Positions 4,115 through 17,098 of a stretch of 24,000 bases of DNA are shown in pieces (within the stretch, counting starts at the first letter, position 1; each line of letters begins with the position of its first letter). Made by a program: the position numbers and the translations under genes. The notes beneath the pieces were generated by a model, which worked only from the letters and a program-made list of their open reading frames with translations, was not told the DNA's origin and made no database searches. Origin of the DNA: Schleiferiaceae bacterium (lineage in GTDB: Bacteria > Bacteroidota > Bacteroidia > Flavobacteriales > Schleiferiaceae); NCBI GenBank assembly GCA_041739275.1, contig JBGSOF010000022.1, positions 27,313-51,312 on the forward strand, read 5' to 3'.

Positions 4115-6961
4115 TTACTTACTCAAGTACAGATTTCGCTCTGCATAGAGTTTTTTGAAAATAGGGTCTTTCAAATTAGGGATGAAAAAGATCGCTTCTC
4201 CCGTTGATTTCATCTCCGGTCCGAGTGCCTTACTGACATCAGGGAACTTATTGAAAGAAAATACTGGACTTTTTATTGCAAACCCCTCGAGTTTTGGGTT
4301 GAATTCAAAATCAGAGAGTTTGTTGGCCCCCAGCATGAGTCGGGTGGCGTAGTTCACATAAGGTTCTCCATAGGCCTTGGCAATAAACGGCACGGTGCGC
4401 GATGCCCTCGGATTGGCTTCGATGATGTACACCACGTCGTCTTTGATGGCGAATTGTATGTTGATCAAGCCCACCGTGCCGAGCGCCTTGGCAATGGTCT
4501 CGGTGTGATCTCGTATTTGTTGAATGATGAGTTCGCCCAAGTTGAAAGGCGGCAAGGTGGCGTTCGAATCGCCCGAGTGAATTCCGCAAGGCTCGATGTG
4601 CTCCATAATGCCGATGATGTAGACCGACTCGCCGTCGGAAATAGCGTCGGCCTCGGCTTCGATGGCACCGTCGAGGTAGTGATCGAGCAGCACTCGGTTG
4701 CCCGGTATGTCCTTGAACAAGTTGACTACGTGGTGTTCGAGCTCTTCGTGGTTGATGACAATCTTCATCCCCTGCCCTCCGAGCACATAACTCGGGCGAA
4801 CCAGCATGGGGAAACCGAGCTGCTGCGCAAGATCTCGCGCTTCGTCGGCATTGGTAATCACCCCAAATTCGGGATAGGGGATGCCGTGTTCCTTGAGCAA
4901 GGTGGAAAAACGACCGCGGTCTTCGGCCAAATCGAGTGAGCGAAAGCTCGTGCCCAAAATCGGAATTCCGTATCGATCGAGTTTTTCGGCCAACTTGAGC
5001 GCGGTTTGTCCGCCCAATTGCACAATCACTCCAATCGGCTGCTCGTGGCGGATGATGTCGTAAATGTGTTCCCAAAACACGGGCTCGAAGTAGAGCTTGT
5101 CGGCGGTATCGAAGTCGGTTGAAACCGTTTCGGGATTGCAATTGATCATAATGGTCTCGTAGCCGCACTCGCGCGCTGCCAACACCCCGTGTACACAGCA
5201 GTAGTCGAACTCGATGCCCTGACCGATTCGGTTCGGGCCCGAGCCCAAAACCACCACCTTGGGCCTTTCGCTGCGAACGCTCTCATTCTCGGCCGCGAGT
5301 TGCCCCGGCATGCCCGACAAGCTTTCGAAGCTCGAGTAGTAATAAGGTGTCGCGGCGGGGAATTCGGCTGCGCATGTGTCGACGATCTTCCACACCCTTT
5401 CAATTCCCTCGTCTACGCGCCTGCGGTGGACTTCGCTCTCGAGGCAACCCAGCATATGCGCAATCTGCCGATCGGCAAAGCCCTTGCTCTTGGCTTCGCG
5501 CAACAATTCGGCGGGGATCTCTTCGAGAGAGTAAGCCTCGATGCGCACTTGCACCTCGACCAAGTCTTTGATTTGCTTCAAGAACCAAGGGTCGATGCCG
5601 GTCAACTCGGCGATGCGTCGAATCGGAATCCCCAGCTGGAGGGCGTCATAGATCACAAAAACCCGATCCCAGCTGGCATAGGTCAGCTTTTTGACCACCA
5701 AGTCTTGATCGGTCAAGCCCTTGCCATCGGCACCGAGACCGTTTCTCTTGACTTCGAGCGATTGAGCGGCTTTGTGAAGCGCCTCTTGAAAACTGCGGCC
5801 GATGCCCATCACCTCTCCGACCGACTTCATCTGCAGACCCAAACGACGGTCGGTTCCCTCGAATTTGTCGAAGTTCCAGCGGGGTATTTTAACGATGACA
5901 TAATCGAGGGTCGGCTCAAAAAAGGCTGAGGTAGAACCGGTGATCGAGTTGCGCAGTTCGTCGAGTCGATAACCGATGGCCAGTTTTGCCGCGATTTTGG
6001 CGATGGGATAGCCCGTGGCCTTGCTCGCGAGCGCGGACGATCGAGAAACCCTCGGGTTGATCTCGATGGCGACGATTTCCTCTTTTTCGTCGGGGCTCAA
6101 GGCAAACTGCACATTGCAGCCTCCCGCAAAATTCCCGATCGAGCGCATCATCAAAATAGCCAGATCGCGCATTCTCTGATAGGCCGTATCGCTCAAAGTC
6201 ATGGCGGGAGCCACGGTAATTGAATCGCCCGTGTGGATCCCCATCGGATCCATGTTCTCGATAGAACAGACGATCATGACGTTGTCGGCCGAGTCGCGGA
6301 GGAGCTCGAGCTCGAATTCTTTCCAACCCATCAGGGCCTTGTCGATCAGCACCTCGTGTATGGGCGATGCCTCCAGACCCCGTTTGAGCAAAAGGTCGAA
6401 GTCTTCTTTTTGATATACGATCGAAGCACCCGAGCCTCCAAGGGTAAACGAAGGTCTGATGCAGAGCGGGAAACCAAATTCTTGGGCGATCTCTTTTCCT
6501 TTCAGGTAAGAAGTGGCTGTGCGGCTGGGCGCAACTCCAACTTCGAGGCGCTCCATCAATTGCCGAAACTGCTCGCGGTCTTCGGTCAGATTGATCGCCG
6601 CAATATCGACCCCGATAATTCGCACCCCATGTGCTTCCCAGATGCCCATTTTATCGCACTCGATGCACAAGTTCAGGGCAGTTTGCCCCCCCATGGTCGG
6701 CAGAACGGCATCGATTTGACGCTCTTCGAGAATCGTCTCGATCGACTCGGGGGTGAGCGGCAACAGATAAATGTGCTCGGCCATGACGGGGTCGGTCATG
6801 ATGGTCGCCGGATTGCTGTTGATGAGCGATACCTCGATACCTTCTTCGCGCAGCGATCGAGCTGCTTGAGATCCGCTGTAGTCGAATTCGCAGGCCTGAC
6901 CGATGACGATGGGCCCGCTCCCGATGATGAGGACGGAGCGTATGGAGCTGTCTTTGGGCAT
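4115..6961 (-). CDS. carB: Carbamoyl-phosphate synthase large subunit
   Basis: 948 aa. The N-terminus IRSVLIIGSGPIVIGQACEFDYSGSQAARSLREEGIEVSLINSNPATIMTD matches CarB. The second ATP-grasp half begins KVVVLGSGPNRIGQGIEFDYCCVH. The duplicated CPSase architecture is unmistakable. Confidence 0.97.
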   Translation of the reverse strand: MPKDSSIRSVLIIGSGPIVIGQACEFDYSGSQAARSLREEGIEVSLINSNPATIMTDPVMAEHIYLLPLTPESIETILEERQIDAVLPTMGGQTALNLCIECDKMGIWEAHGVRIIGVDIAAINLTEDREQFRQLMERLEVGVAPSRTATSYLKGKEIAQEFGFPLCIRPSFTLGGSGASIVYQKEDFDLLLKRGLEASPIHEVLIDKALMGWKEFELELLRDSADNVMIVCSIENMDPMGIHTGDSITVAPAMTLSDTAYQRMRDLAILMMRSIGNFAGGCNVQFALSPDEKEEIVAIEINPRVSRSSALASKATGYPIAKIAAKLAIGYRLDELRNSITGSTSAFFEPTLDYVIVKIPRWNFDKFEGTDRRLGLQMKSVGEVMGIGRSFQEALHKAAQSLEVKRNGLGADGKGLTDQDLVVKKLTYASWDRVFVIYDALQLGIPIRRIAELTGIDPWFLKQIKDLVEVQVRIEAYSLEEIPAELLREAKSKGFADRQIAHMLGCLESEVHRRRVDEGIERVWKIVDTCAAEFPAATPYYYSSFESLSGMPGQLAAENESVRSERPKVVVLGSGPNRIGQGIEFDYCCVHGVLAARECGYETIMINCNPETVSTDFDTADKLYFEPVFWEHIYDIIRHEQPIGVIVQLGGQTALKLAEKLDRYGIPILGTSFRSLDLAEDRGRFSTLLKEHGIPYPEFGVITNADEARDLAQQLGFPMLVRPSYVLGGQGMKIVINHEELEHHVVNLFKDIPGNRVLLDHYLDGAIEAEADAISDGESVYIIGIMEHIEPCGIHSGDSNATLPPFNLGELIIQQIRDHTETIAKALGTVGLINIQFAIKDDVVYIIEANPRASRTVPFIAKAYGEPYVNYATRLMLGANKLSDFEFNPKLEGFAIKSPVFSFNKFPDVSKALGPEMKSTGEAIFFIPNLKDPIFKKLYAERNLYLSK

Positions 6962-13284: not shown

Positions 13285-15081
13285 TTGGCGAAGAGATACC
13301 CTCCTGAAAACGAGGAGAAAAAGCCGAAAGCAAGTCTCAAAAGTCTCAAGCGCTCGCTGAGGCTGTACAAGTACATCAAGCCCTATCGCGGGGCCTTTGT
13401 GCTCGGTATGGTCTTTTTGTTCCTCTCGAGCGCGGCCAATTTGGCCTTTCCCAAGTTTCTGGGGGAATTGGTGAGCGCGAGTTCCAAGCCCGATTTCGCC
13501 CAACAATTAGGGCGTATTGCGCTGATTTTGGCGGGGTTGCTCGTGGTTCAGGCGGTATTTTCGTATTTTAGGATTCTGCTGTTCGTCCGGGTGGCCGAAA
13601 AGGGGTTGGCCGCGCTTCGTCAGGCGACGTATTCGAAGATGCTTCGCTTGCCCATGGCGTTTTTCGACCAAAAGCGAGTAGGCGAATTGACGAGTAGGAT
13701 CGCGTCAGACATCAACGTGTTGCAGGATGTCTTTACGTCGACCTTGGCGGAATTCATTCGGCAGTTGATCATTATTGTGGGGGGCATCGGCTTGTTGCTC
13801 TACACTTCTCCGCGGCTGACGCTGATTATGCTGGCTTCGCTGCCGCCTGTGGTGCTGCTCTCGGTGGCCTTTGGGCGTTTTATTCGCCGGTATGCCAAAG
13901 ATGTTTCAAAGATGATGGCCGAGGCTACGACCGTGGTCGAAGAAACTCTTCAGGGCATTGCCAGTGTAAAGAGCTATGCGAATGAGCACTTTGAATTGGG
14001 GCGATACAAAGCGAAAACAGACGCGGTGGCGGCTACCGCGATCAAGGGTGGGGTGTATCGAGCCGGTTTTGCTTCGTTTGTGATTCTCGGTTTGTTTGGA
14101 GCCGTGGTGTTGGTGATTTGGCAAGGCAGTTTGGACATTGCACGAGGCAGCATGGACGCGGGCGATTTGTTCAGTTTTGTGCTGTATTCGAGCTTTATCG
14201 GAGGGTCTATTGGGGGGATGGCGGATGTGTACGCTCGCTTGCAGCGGGCTTCGGGGGCGACGGAGGAACTGCTCGACATTTTTGATCAAGAAGAGGAGCC
14301 GATTCGGCTGGATCCGCCTTTGACTCGCGACCGCTCGCTTCGCGGTGCGCTTGAGTTTGAAAACCTGCGTTTTGCATATCCTTCTCGCCCCGCTTTTGAG
14401 GTGATTAAAGGGCTGAATTTGACGATTGAACCGGGTACGCGAGTGGCTTTGGTGGGTTCGAGTGGGGCAGGCAAGAGCACGCTGATGGCCCTTTTGCTTC
14501 GATTCTACGCGCCGGTTTCGGGTTGCATCAAAATCGATGGACGCAACCTGAACGATTGGGATTTAAGTGGTTATCGTTCACAATTGGCCCTGGTGCCCCA
14601 AGAGGTTTTGCTCTTTGGGGGAACCATTGAAGAGAATATTCGCTACGGCAAGCCGGGGGCTTCTTTGGAGGAAGTGATGGACGCGGCGCGCAAGGCCTAC
14701 GCCCATGATTTTATCGCTTCGTTTCCCGATGGATATCAAACGACGGTGGGCGAGCGCGGCATTCAGTTGAGCGGGGGTCAGCGGCAGCGAATTGCAATTG
14801 CTCGAGCTTTGTTAAACGATCCGGCTCTTTTGCTCTTGGACGAAGCCACTTCTGCCCTCGACAGCGAGTCGGAGTTTTTTGTGCAGAGCGCGCTCGAAGC
14901 ATTGATGACGAACCGCACCAGCTTGGTGATCGCCCATCGCTTGAGCACCATTCGCCAAGCCGACCGCATTCTTGTACTCGACGAAGGCCGCATCGTGGAA
15001 GACGGCTCGCCCGATGCCCTGCTTGCCCGCCCAGACAGCCGCTTCAAAACCCTCTGGGAGCGGCAGTTGTTGGATGATTGA
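13285..15081 (+). CDS. ABC transporter, fused permease/ATPase (ABCB/MsbA-like exporter)
   Basis: 598 aa with an N-terminal six-helix-type TMD. The ATPase motifs are Walker A GSSGAGKST, signature LSGGQRQRIAIARAL, Walker B LLLLDEATSALD and H-loop VIAHRLSTI. The TTG start lies 2 nt after the oxygenase stop. Confidence 0.93.
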   Translation: MAKRYPPENEEKKPKASLKSLKRSLRLYKYIKPYRGAFVLGMVFLFLSSAANLAFPKFLGELVSASSKPDFAQQLGRIALILAGLLVVQAVFSYFRILLFVRVAEKGLAALRQATYSKMLRLPMAFFDQKRVGELTSRIASDINVLQDVFTSTLAEFIRQLIIIVGGIGLLLYTSPRLTLIMLASLPPVVLLSVAFGRFIRRYAKDVSKMMAEATTVVEETLQGIASVKSYANEHFELGRYKAKTDAVAATAIKGGVYRAGFASFVILGLFGAVVLVIWQGSLDIARGSMDAGDLFSFVLYSSFIGGSIGGMADVYARLQRASGATEELLDIFDQEEEPIRLDPPLTRDRSLRGALEFENLRFAYPSRPAFEVIKGLNLTIEPGTRVALVGSSGAGKSTLMALLLRFYAPVSGCIKIDGRNLNDWDLSGYRSQLALVPQEVLLFGGTIEENIRYGKPGASLEEVMDAARKAYAHDFIASFPDGYQTTVGERGIQLSGGQRQRIAIARALLNDPALLLLDEATSALDSESEFFVQSALEALMTNRTSLVIAHRLSTIRQADRILVLDEGRIVEDGSPDALLARPDSRFKTLWERQLLDD

Positions 15082-15085
15082 CTTT

Positions 15086-15300
15086 GGGCAGACACATAGG
15101 ACAGACACATAGGACAGACACATAGGGCAGACATCTAGGGGCAGACGTCTAGGGGCAGACGTCTAGGGGCAGAAGTCTAGGGGCAGACGTCTAGGGGCAG
15201 ACGTCTAGGGGCAGAAGTCTAGGGGCAGAAGTCTAGGGGCAGACGTCTAGGGGCAGACGTCTAGGGGCAGACGTCTAGGGGCAGACACGTAGGTCTGCCC
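15086..15300 (+). repeat. Tandem array of 15 units (3 x 13 bp, 11 x 14 bp, plus a terminal hairpin unit) built on GGCAGAC
   Basis: CAGA(C/A) cores occur at 15089, 15102, 15115, 15128, then every 14 bp to 15282. The canonical unit CAGACGTCTAGGGG contains the 8-bp palindrome AGACGTCT. The variants are CAGAAGTCTAGGGG (3 copies), CAGACATCTAGGGG (1 copy) and (G)ACAGACACATAGG (3 copies). Confidence 0.95.
15279..15300 (+). repeat. REP-like perfect hairpin GGGCAGAC-ACGTAG-GTCTGCCC terminating the array
   Basis: 8-bp perfect stem (15279-15286 pairing with 15293-15300) and a 6-nt loop containing GTAG. It lies 92 nt upstream of the RAYT-like ATG. Confidence 0.8.
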
Positions 15301-15391
15301 TTACGGGGTGTAGGGTATGTATTACATTTTGGTGTAGTTTTACGGGGTCGACTGCGCATTGGCGTGGCCTTACCAAAAAACGAAAATCAGG

Positions 15392-16027
15392 ATGAATCGA
15401 TACAACACCTGTATTCGTCGAAGAAAATCTATTCGATTAAAAGGCTATGATTATTCGCAGGCCGGATTGTATTTTATTACCATTTGTGTTCAAAATAGAC
15501 GGCGTCTGTTTGGAGAAATCGTCGGCAGAGTCGAAGACGCGAGTTTGACGGTTACAAATAAAATGGTATTGAACGAAGCCGGAATCATGGTTAAAAAATG
15601 GTACTTCGAATTGGAAAATAAATTTCCAGATATCCGATGCCACGAAATGGTGGTTATGCCCGACCATTTCCATTGCATTATCGAAAACGTCGGCGGAAAG
15701 GGCGAGGACGCGGGTTCGCCCCAACTTCATAAAATAAACGGGTTTGGCCAAAAAAAGGGCGAACACGCAGGTTCGGGCGAACACGCAGGTTCGCCCCTAT
15801 ACAGGGTGGTGCAATGGTTTAAAACCATGACGACGAACGAATATATCCGCGGTGTAAAAAACAATAATTGGCAACCGTTTAATAGGAAATTATGGCAACG
15901 AAATTATTATGAATGCATCATTCGAAGCGAACAATCCTTTAAAACTATTTCGAAATACATTGTCAATAATCCCGCAAAATGGAGTTTAAAACTCACTTGG
16001 AAATACAACGATTATCGACAACATTAA
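15392..16027 (+). CDS. REP-associated tyrosine transposase-like protein (RAYT; IS200-like Y1/HUH transposase family)
   Basis: The N-terminus RRRKSIRLKGYDYSQAGLYFITICVQNRRRLFG, the HUH motif in MPDHFHCII, and the C-terminal block VQWFKTMTTNEYIRG...KLWQRNYYECIIRSE are characteristic of COG1943-type RAYTs. The ATG at 15392 is preferred over the track's TTG at 15359. Confidence 0.85.
   Translation: MNRYNTCIRRRKSIRLKGYDYSQAGLYFITICVQNRRRLFGEIVGRVEDASLTVTNKMVLNEAGIMVKKWYFELENKFPDIRCHEMVVMPDHFHCIIENVGGKGEDAGSPQLHKINGFGQKKGEHAGSGEHAGSPLYRVVQWFKTMTTNEYIRGVKNNNWQPFNRKLWQRNYYECIIRSEQSFKTISKYIVNNPAKWSLKLTWKYNDYRQH
15700..15796 (+). repeat. Three in-frame hairpin-type repeats inside the RAYT ORF, including an exact 18-bp tandem duplication
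   Basis: The copies are GGGCGAGG-ACGCGG-GTTCGCCC (15700-15721, imperfect), GGGCGAAC-ACGCAG-GTTCGGGC (15757-15778) and GGGCGAAC-ACGCAG-GTTCGCCC (15775-15796, perfect 8-bp stem). Bases 15757-15774 equal 15775-15792 exactly. They encode GEDAGSP, GEHAGS and GEHAGSP. Confidence 0.85.
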
Positions 16028-16072
16028 AGCCTATGGCGTCTATCACTCAAAACGTAGGATTCCAATTCCCCA

Positions 16073-17098
16073 CTACCCCACCGCTTTGCGATACGCCTTA
16101 AAATCTGCCCAAACTATTGATGCAGGGCGTTTTGGGGCGAGGCCGTTGTGGCGGGCGATGCGCGCGAGGAGCGACCAGTAGTTGAGGAGCGTTTTTTGCG
16201 CCTCCCAGAACGAAAAACCCGGACTGTAGATGTGTGTCGGCTCGCTCGCCGCACCGTTGAGTTCGATGATACAAAAATCGCGGCCTTCGAGCAAAGCCTC
16301 CCATGAAGCCGCCTTCAGGTCGAAACGCCCAAAATGGAACCCCTGGATAGACGCACTCAACGACTGCATTCGCTCCACCAAACGAGCGTCGATACGTTCT
16401 CGCGCATCGAGAAAAATCGTGCCTCGATTGTGATTTCCAATCGGCTGACAGCGAACAACTTCTCCATGGGCCGGAAGTAGATTCAAAATCAGATCGTCCA
16501 CGCGATCCAAATAGCGACAAAAACGCGGATGCGCCTCCAAGAGCACGCGAACCGTGCGCACACCATCGCCTACCACCTCCATAAACTGCTTGTCGCATAC
16601 CGAAACCACGCGGAAACGATCCTCGCCCGGATAGCGAACGACGAAGACTCCATACTCGAAGGGAAAATCACAGTACTTCTGCAGGATGTGCGGACGCTCG
16701 ATCGCCCCCAATGCCGCCACCGCCTCGGCCTCGTCGCGCAAAAGGCGCACACCAATGCCCCGTTCGCCCACCTCAGGCTTCAAAACCAGAGGAAAAGACC
16801 TGCCCAAACGCTCCAATACCCCTCCCGCCTCCACAGGCTTCAAAGCGCGTTCAACCACCTCGTATTCGGGAACAAATTCGGTTGGAAGCAAGCGCAGCAC
16901 ATCGCTCTTTCGATATCCAAACAACCCTCCGTATTCGATGGCCGGATTGACGGCCGAAAGCCAATCTAAACGACCGAAGCGAATCACATAAAAAACATAC
17001 CGAAAAAACACCAAGGGATATACCCAGGTATAGGGCCAAAACTCCCAAGCCCCGAAAAGCAGCGACATCCGGGCAAACAACCTCACCCCAGCGCGCAC
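16073..17098 (-). CDS. ATP-grasp fold amidoligase-like protein with a hydrophobic N-terminal anchor
   Basis: The ATP-grasp hallmarks are PLVLKPEVGERGIGVRLL (Lys plus Gly-rich loop), ILQKYCDFPFEYGVFVV, GRFDLKA and CIIELNGAASEPTH (the ExN metal site). The N-terminal roughly 40 aa are aromatic and hydrophobic (WEFWPYTWVYPLVFFRYVFYVI). The GTG at 17098 overlaps the NRDE gene by 16 nt. The alternative ATG at 17068 lies 14 nt after the NRDE stop. Confidence 0.72.
   Translation of the reverse strand: MRAGVRLFARMSLLFGAWEFWPYTWVYPLVFFRYVFYVIRFGRLDWLSAVNPAIEYGGLFGYRKSDVLRLLPTEFVPEYEVVERALKPVEAGGVLERLGRSFPLVLKPEVGERGIGVRLLRDEAEAVAALGAIERPHILQKYCDFPFEYGVFVVRYPGEDRFRVVSVCDKQFMEVVGDGVRTVRVLLEAHPRFCRYLDRVDDLILNLLPAHGEVVRCQPIGNHNRGTIFLDARERIDARLVERMQSLSASIQGFHFGRFDLKAASWEALLEGRDFCIIELNGAASEPTHIYSPGFSFWEAQKTLLNYWSLLARIARHNGLAPKRPASIVWADFKAYRKAVG

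Follow-up and report, generated by a model that had tools for sequence, protein, structure and literature searches.

The window (the whole stretch of DNA analysed here, 24,000 nucleotides) contains a gene for a REP-associated tyrosine transposase (RAYT, or TnpA_REP) in which hairpin units are read in frame, and which is preceded by a related hairpin at the end of a long tandem array. REP here is a GTAG-footed, GC-rich palindrome, the presumed single-stranded substrate of this RAYT subfamily. The features are as follows.

15089–15133, + strand: 13-bp tandem units CAGAC-ACATAG-GA, 3.5 copies, partial left arm plus loop (TRF and repeat search)
15125–15286, + strand: 14-bp tandem array GGGCAGACGTCTAG, 11.6 copies, 96% match (TRF score 296)
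15279–15304, + strand: extragenic REP hairpin GGGCAGAC-ACGTAG-GTCTGCCC (hairpin 15279–15300), 3′ foot TTAC, 88 nt 5′ of the start codon
15392–16027, + strand: RAYT / TnpA_REP gene of subclass 2.4 (group 4) type, 211 aa (Pfam, NCBIfam, PDB profile, fold)
15659–15679, + strand: HUH motif PDHFHCI, strand β3 (alignment; model strand at residues 92–99)
15680–15814, + strand: variable β3–αC insert carrying the hairpins, 135 nt, 45 codons, read as IENVGGKGEDAGSPQLHKINGFGQKKGEHAGSGEHAGSPLYRVVQ
15700–15725, + strand: Unit 1, degenerate REP GGGCGAGG-ACGCGG-GTTCGCCC (hairpin 15700–15721), foot CAAC, read GEDAGSPQ
15757–15774, + strand: Unit 2, exact 18-bp partial duplicate (left arm, loop and GTTC; TRF), read GEHAGS
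15775–15800, + strand: Unit 3, perfect REP hairpin GGGCGAAC-ACGCAG-GTTCGCCC (hairpin 15775–15796), foot CTAT, read GEHAGSPL
15914–15916, + strand: Cys175, equivalent of His101 of E. coli TnpA_REP (alignment to 4ER8)
15956–15958, + strand: codon of the catalytic tyrosine Y189, motif YIVNNP (invariant in the homologue alignment; aligns with YIYINP of 4ER8)

The open reading frame encodes a Y1/HUH REP-associated tyrosine transposase, and profile and fold searches agree on this. An HUH motif is combined with a single Tyr on the C-terminal helix, and the Pfam family PF01797 (Y1_Tnp) scores above its cut-off (26.1 vs 23 bits). NCBIfam REP_Tyr_transpos stays below its cut-off (57.7 vs 80 bits) because the insert splits the match. 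A PDB profile search with 45 homologues returns 4ER8 (TnpA_REP) as its sole match, and 4ER8_A is also the best Foldseek hit in the PDB (E 2.4e-5) of the AlphaFold model (pTM 0.68), followed by the TnpA structures of ISDra2 and IS608. The gene has a GC content of ∼0.40–0.46, compared with ∼0.55 in the flanks. The key motifs of subclass 2.4 are recognizable as WQ (LWQRNYYECIIR, LWQRNYY), YIVNNP and DHFH, the last being the HUH motif, and the conserved block WFKTMTTNEYIRGV (WFKTMTT) begins at 15815.

Homologues of the protein number 7627 (184–289 aa). Eighty genomic loci were fetched, mostly from Bacteroidota but including Chloroflexota, Gamma- and Deltaproteobacteria, Nitrospirae, KSB1 and Planctomycetes, among others. 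Both anchor motifs are present in 71 loci (70 homologous ones and the window). The N-to-D variant of the HUH motif (DHFH) occurs in 8/71 loci, the window included, and the remainder have NH[IFVL]H. The residue equivalent to His101, which in E. coli TnpA_REP contacts the GTAG foot (PMC6006769), is His in 66/71 loci and Cys in the window.

A preliminary description of this sequence placed three units of one 8+6+8 architecture between the HUH motif and the conserved C-terminal block. Unit 3 is indeed a perfect hairpin, the last two units arise from an exact 18-bp tandem duplication (15757–15793; TRF period 18, 2.1 copies, 100% match), and the translations given for the units (GEDAGSP, GEHAGS and GEHAGSP) are borne out. 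Unit 1, however, forms only 6/8 pairs, with two mismatches at the top of the stem, and Unit 2 consists of a left arm, a loop and 4 nt and lacks its own right arm. In a fold of the entire 121-nt segment (z ∼ −2.9), the units pair with one another over long range, which rules out three independent local hairpins. With only one perfect intragenic hairpin and with units that cross-pair, the description was right in substance but overstated in giving all three one architecture.

The upstream hairpin differs from Unit 3 at two adjacent stem positions, and both differences are compensated on the opposite arm, as had been noted. The pattern GGGCNNAC-N6-GTNNGCCC has only these two matches in the 24 kb (expected 0.10), and a pattern search for further REP copies beyond this locus found none within the window. 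An Rfam scan of 14900–16200 at E ≤ 1 matched no family. The upstream hairpin is also the final unit of the 13/14-bp array (15089–15286, ∼15 copies of arm plus loop), an arrangement which the preliminary description passed over. The array begins, in its 14-bp part, 5 nt past the stop codon of an upstream ABC-transporter gene, and is built of the REP left arm and a diverged loop; the 13-bp units at 15089–15133 are its oldest part. GGGCAGAC occurs 11 times (expected 0.67). Shorter, analogous REP-derived arrays adjoin homologous genes. The feet in the window are GTAA (the other strand of TTAC, at the upstream hairpin), GTTG (Unit 1) and ATAG (Unit 3); none is the canonical GTAG, and none fits GT[AG]G. 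All units share the loop orientation ACGYRG, so that the inverted doublet of a REPIN is not formed. With one orientation, no GTAG foot, and Cys for the GTAG-contacting His, the window copy is a somewhat degenerate member of its family.

Across the 71 loci the insert is 60–360 nt long and always a multiple of 3. In nearly all aligned homologues the HFHCIIEN motif is followed by VGADLRVCP(D/N), then by a hypervariable, repeat-rich stretch, and finally by GEHxGSPL directly before RVVQWFKTM. VGADLRVCP is the reverse-complement reading of the hairpin GTAGGGGCAGAC-CTGCGT-GTCTGCCCC, and the loop is therefore bracketed by two inverted hairpins with their GTAG feet pointing outward. Unit 1 of the window sits where most homologues have this inverted copy, read VGADLRVCP(N/D). 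Hairpins in both orientations are found in 40 of the 71 loci, only the GEH type in 10 (the window included), only the VGAD type in 7, only a single long palindrome in 6, and no clear hairpin in 8. At least one hairpin or long palindrome is thus present in 63/71 inserts, and one at the same offset as Unit 3 in ∼48/57 aligned loci. One sub-clade lacks the doublet and carries one long palindrome of another kind instead, and a double-foot form, GGACGCCCACGTAGGGAC/GTCCCTACGTGGGCGTCC, gives the peptide DAHVGTSLRGRP in one sub-clade. The hairpin DNA is also translated in further frames (GQTHGSAPT, GRTHGSAPT) and turns up elsewhere in the gene, the full doublet occurring at a second site in one locus (L044). 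In-frame stops are seen in another (L025). The preliminary description had asked whether the insert is hypervariable in length and always hairpin-forming; the first holds, the second fails in the 8 loci without a clear hairpin. A comparison of N-half and C-half identity, made to look for domain shuffling at the insert, gives a correlation of 0.30 with only 17 loci past the filter, too little to speak for or against shuffling.

In the AlphaFold model the strand of the HUH motif (residues 92–99) is followed by residues 104–128 with pLDDT <50 and by a helix from 135 to 157. As the last hairpin encodes residues 129–136, S-P-L would start helix αC. The insert is accordingly modelled, at low confidence, as a disordered loop between the HUH strand and helix αC, in line with the surface loop that the preliminary description had asked about. 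A published homology model likewise shows the variable region as a peripheral extension (PMC6006769).

The hairpin DNA is conserved, and the peptide is not. In the terminal G[EA]HxG[SA]PL of 47 loci, each residue is written with essentially one codon: GGC (45/47), GAA (43/43), CAC (46/47), GGT (46/47), TCG (41/43), CCC (45/47) and, for Leu, CTA (42/47). The conserved remainder of the same genes uses all codons, with CTA at 7% of Leu, TCG at 22% of Ser and GGC at 19% of Gly. GEHxGSPL changes to GAHxGAPL exactly when a stem A-T pair changes to C-G, as a compensated pair. In the left hairpin, the silent third position of Ala set against the first position of Cys/Arg gives 30 A-T and 13 G-C pairs and 1 mismatch, and the first position of Asp/Asn set against the silent third position of Val gives 37 G-C, 6 A-T and 1 mismatch. 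When sites are anchored on one arm only (GTAGGGGC), 157/184 form at least 7/8 stem base pairs, the loop consensus is CYRYGT, and the stem classes GAAC (56), AGAC (53), GCAC (17) and GGAC (15) are all perfectly compensated. The conclusion follows from the frozen synonymous sites and compensated stems, taken together with the occurrence of the same DNA in other frames and orientations and in dispersed doublets. It agrees with the earlier argument that structure rather than peptide is conserved, since in the 47 loci there is one codon per residue and synonymous changes that break the pairing are not the rule.

The claim that the hairpins covary needs more care. Compensated stem classes do exist, but AGAC and GAAC, the pair that separates Unit 3 from the upstream hairpin, are two standing stem classes of the REP family, one typically on the left and the other on the right of a doublet, and formal covariation at the orthologous position is weak. 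There, 88.6% of cells are paired and the covariation score is 0.053 vs 0.039 (attained by 21/500 shuffles); strong covariation at the orthologous terminal hairpin is ruled out, the stem being mostly invariant. Judged from the sequences, the argument at this position rests on the frozen silent sites, which a DNA or RNA function and repeated gene conversion would explain equally well.

Outside the gene the same elements recur. Directly 5′ and 3′ of homologous genes are doublets of the form GTAG-GGGCAGAC-ctgcgt-GTCTGCCC, a spacer of ∼50 nt, and GGGCGAAC-acgcag-GTTCGCCC-CTAC, with the same asymmetry (left AGAC, right GAAC) as inside the gene. Each orientation has ∼80 hairpins, 67 of them with a GTAG/CTAC foot, and in homologous loci with His at the contact position 137/164 hairpins have GTAG. 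Copies inside and outside the gene resemble each other within a locus: stem types match in 22/35 comparisons vs 0.43 when permuted (0/2000), loops in 15/29 loci vs 6.1 (0/2000), and an exact 22-mer is shared in 11/29 loci vs 3.3 (1/2000). The stem and loop matches bear out the relationship between intragenic hairpins and host REPs on which the preliminary description had made its case depend. Metagenome contigs, scanned for the left-type hairpin with no condition on a RAYT gene, contain at least 136 occurrences. Among the 136 listed, only ∼9 fall within or close to a RAYT gene of the subclass 2.4 kind, 54 are flanked on either side by 1 kb or more that is free of RAYT genes, and some lie inside unrelated genes. 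Doublets among the matches listed are left-right in 42 cases and right-left in 7, with 20–60 nt spacing. From the dispersed, RAYT-free occurrences and their paired layout it follows that the hairpin is a genuine dispersed REP forming REPIN-like doublets. The doublet that flanks the genes and is dispersed in genomes is the doublet that brackets the variable loop within the gene.

The loop grows by tandem duplication of arm-plus-loop units, and in the gene only multiples of 3 are seen. Inserts have ∼10 times the tandem-repeat density of distant flanks: TRF gives 73 rows for 12.6 kb of insert and 536 for ∼1 Mb of flank. The units are typically the interior arm and loop of a hairpin, with a modal period of 18 bp. 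Intragenic periods are almost all multiples of 3 (12, 15, 18, 21, 24, 27 etc.), whereas extragenic REP-derived arrays have periods of 13, 14, 16, 17, 20 and 22. As periods are limited by the reading frame inside the gene and free outside, the 18-bp duplication of the window and the 13/14-bp array farther upstream come from a single mutational tendency, the first filtered by the reading frame, the second unfiltered. A duplication junction at the C/T cleavage dinucleotide of other RAYTs was also considered and is unsupported, the junction lying between GCCC and GAAC or between GCC and CGAAC (one rotation).

These observations make it probable that the intragenic units are copies or fragments of a REP, the presumed ssDNA substrate of the subclass 2.4 RAYT, embedded in frame in a disordered loop. 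A REP doublet would have entered the RAYT gene at a place that tolerates additional residues; the RAYT itself may have inserted it, or it may have come in through recombination with copies in the flanks. As part of the REP pool recognised by the enzyme, the intragenic copies may then stay hairpin-competent, whether through renewal by exchange with their neighbours or through selection as recognition sites. Both the 18-bp duplication in the gene and the 13/14-bp array upstream could stem from slippage or misalignment at the palindromes, with enzyme-mediated cleavage and joining as the other candidate mechanism. That the transposase substrate invaded its own gene at a permissive loop had been suggested in the preliminary description, and is also the published view (PMC6006769). 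It is supported here, since pairing-breaking synonymous changes are not the rule, the intragenic hairpins are related to the host REPs, and the insert lies in a low-confidence loop. A plain “tolerated junk” explanation does not by itself account for intact hairpins in genes whose proteins are 45–65% identical. Why the hairpins have stayed intact at their silent sites through so deep a divergence could be explained by ongoing exchange with the REP pool, or by a function in cis.

In the latter case, selection would keep the intragenic hairpins so that the RAYT or a host factor can act on the gene or its mRNA. The pair could serve as a binding site for autoregulation, affect translation or stability, or be cut so that the enzyme remodels or switches the gene. 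The RAYT, recognising the hairpins of its own gene as ssDNA or mRNA, would thereby limit its own expression or remodel the loop. In E. coli, REPs carried by mRNA are established regulators (background literature), and a selected cis role would explain the frozen silent sites, the perfect pairing retained across genes 45–65% identical, and the exact and constant distance of the right-hand hairpin from αC across phyla, in a gene of ∼50% identity elsewhere. Yet one sub-clade has another long palindrome in place of the doublet, 8 loci are without a clear hairpin, the window copy is itself degenerate, and the number, orientation and spacing of the hairpins vary freely; the within-locus likeness to flanking copies is explained as well by gene conversion. 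We regard a selected cis-acting role, akin to the autoregulatory or recognition site that the preliminary description offered as its alternative, as unlikely beside the preferred reading of embedded REP copies.

Much less can be said for programmed hypervariability, with hairpin-bracketed repeats as a contingency-type cassette that adaptively varies a surface loop for partner or target choice. The 60–360 nt range, the 10-fold excess of tandem repeats and the periods in multiples of 3 would suit such a cassette, but the published model has the loop facing away from both the DNA-binding and the catalytic surface (PMC6006769). Repeat growth is the same in non-coding copies, including the 14-bp array of the window, and is therefore a property of the DNA element and not of the protein; we consider an adaptive cassette very improbable. 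Least credible of all is that GEHxGSPL and VGADLRVCP are functional protein motifs with the hairpin as a codon by-product: H131, G133, S134 and P135 are invariant in a 45-sequence protein alignment and S-P-L begins helix αC in the model, but this reading is refuted by the codon analysis (one codon per residue against free codon use elsewhere in the same genes), and the GEH..GSP to GAH..GAP change only as a compensated pair, the reading of the same DNA in three frames and both orientations, the abundance of identical sequence in non-coding DNA and the disorder of the region in the model all count against it. In genome annotation, VGADLRVCP, GEHxGSPL, GQTxxSAPT and GRHAGLPL should be taken as marks of translated REPs rather than as protein motifs.

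Few bacterial repeat systems are as abundant as REP/RAYT, yet little is understood of the way they spread. With its own presumed substrate built into the reading frame, a gene of this sort offers a natural experiment on both the insertion and the maintenance of hairpins.

Among known systems, E. coli TnpA_REP (YafM) with its REP/BIME elements (4ER8; Ton-Hoang 2012, Messing 2012, Corneloup 2021) has the same fold and the same catalytic motifs, a substrate in which a GTAG tetranucleotide precedes a GC-rich palindrome, and REPs in inverted pairs. It is, however, a member of subclass 2.2 (group 2); the long stem of its REPs is bulged, and it has neither a REP inside the gene nor a variable β3–αC insertion. 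Its biochemistry is known, whereas subclass 2.4 is known here from sequence and a model; the published RAYT biochemistry found concerns groups 2 and 3 only. The REPINs of Bertels & Rainey are REP doublets that form hairpins. They are matched in the homologous loci and the metagenomes by inverted doublets with 20–60 nt between the hairpins, accompanied by a single RAYT gene, but REPINs are extragenic and are described for group 2/3 RAYTs of Pseudomonas and enterobacteria, and the units in the window are direct, not inverted. The RPEs of Rickettsia and intragenic REPs (Di Nocera et al. 2013, BMC Genomics 14:522) are also small palindromic repeats lying in frame in surface loops and leaving the protein intact. 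Their host genes are unrelated, while the host gene in the window encodes the presumed mobilising enzyme.

The closest relative is TnpA_REP subclass 2.4, defined by Quentin, Siguier, Chandler & Fichant 2018 (BMC Genomics 19:475, PMC6006769) and corresponding to RAYT group 4 (Bertels et al. 2017). The features published for it are the motifs NH[IFV]H / WQ / YIxNNP, a length with a median of 194 aa, REPs of both canonical and “double foot” form and, as a hallmark, in-frame REPs inside its own gene (PMC6006769). The present family resembles it in the W motif (WQ), the Y motif (YIxNNP), an HUH motif of the NH[IFV]H type, the typical length of ∼194 aa, a highly variable, repeat-containing β3–αC insertion, double-foot palindromes, and a patchy taxonomic distribution over many phyla. 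The variable insertion is found in the window as well, and in-frame REPs both there (15700–15800) and in the 63/71 loci. The window protein departs from the subclass in having DHFH for NHFH and Cys at the His101-equivalent position, and its hairpins in having a single orientation and no canonical GTAG foot. Literature searches found no later paper on the function of intragenic REPs and no match to the translated-REP peptide strings. The finding is thus an independent rediscovery of a published hallmark of subclass 2.4, and the locus is a new, rather degenerate member. What is added beyond PMC6006769 is quantitative: conservation at the DNA level, seen in the frozen synonymous sites; the AGAC-left/GAAC-right asymmetry; the joint evolution of intragenic and flanking copies, seen in their within-locus matching; and frame-filtered growth by arm-plus-loop units, as in the 18-bp duplication of the window.

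Among the 81 loci examined, the longest REP-derived array of its kind is that of the window, beginning 5 nt past the stop codon of the ABC-transporter gene upstream of the RAYT gene:

15089-15286, tandem array, ∼15 copies, 13/14-bp repeat unit made up of REP left arm and loop

Its neighbouring AGACGTCT palindromes also pair with each other in perfect 8+6+8 hairpins. Tandem repetition of a larger unit occurs in Comamonas denitrificans (L038:9377-9950), where 132 bp, comprising a complete left and right REP doublet, are present four times directly upstream of the RAYT gene. A further arrangement is seen in a sub-clade of homologous loci (L018, at 6221-6264, with L072, L058, L062, L068, L030 and L010), which have one long ‘double-foot’ palindrome, GGACGCCCACGTAGGGAC|GTCCCTACGTGGGCGTCC, translated DAHVGTSLRGRP, instead of the two-hairpin doublet, and a different sequence, NATIGDAMD, before WFKTM.

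In a comparison of 15400–16100 with its flanks, the RAYT gene has a GC content of ∼0.40–0.46, compared with ∼0.55 in the neighbouring genes. Its closest relatives, which share 65% identity with it, belong to unrelated phyla. Each of these features is consistent with horizontal acquisition. Within the gene, a 15-nt direct repeat (GAAATCGTCGGCAGA at 15515–15529 and GAAAACGTCGGCGGA at 15683–15697, 87% identity) directly precedes each of the two variable sites. The first of these sites (FGEIVGRVEDASLTVTNKMVLNE) carries 11 additional residues, in the position where another REP lies in frame in some homologues, as a second copy. In-frame stop codons interrupt the insert in only one of the 71 loci (L025:1393-1560, IEIVD*GEPACSP*...), which is probably a pseudogene, or a case of REP insertion in a non-permissive frame.

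In-frame insertions of the same REP are also found in unrelated genes, one for a multi-pass membrane protein (L120:3-1790, minus strand), where it is read as KGQTHRSAPT, and one for a large soluble protein (L090:1123-2520, plus strand), where it is read as SRGRPTCLP...VGRHVNNHG. In six metagenome contigs (L082, L084, L102, L129, L151 and L157), REP doublets cluster between genes in GC-rich DNA and form long stop-free stretches of 150–300 codons, which would be called as spurious ORFs, with GRHAGLPL, GQTRRSAPT and VGADLCVCP-like peptides.

The hairpin feet and the residue at the foot-contacting position are as follows:

15301-15304, hairpin foot, GTAA
15722-15725, hairpin foot, GTTG
15797-15800, hairpin foot, ATAG
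15914-15916, codon of Cys175 in the RAYT gene

GTAG is found at none of the feet of the window's hairpins. Taken with Cys175, this could reflect either altered specificity or decay, the numbers being too small to choose between them. In Escherichia coli TnpA_REP the equivalent of Cys175 is His101, a residue in contact with the GTAG foot, and histidine occupies this position in 66 of the 71 loci.
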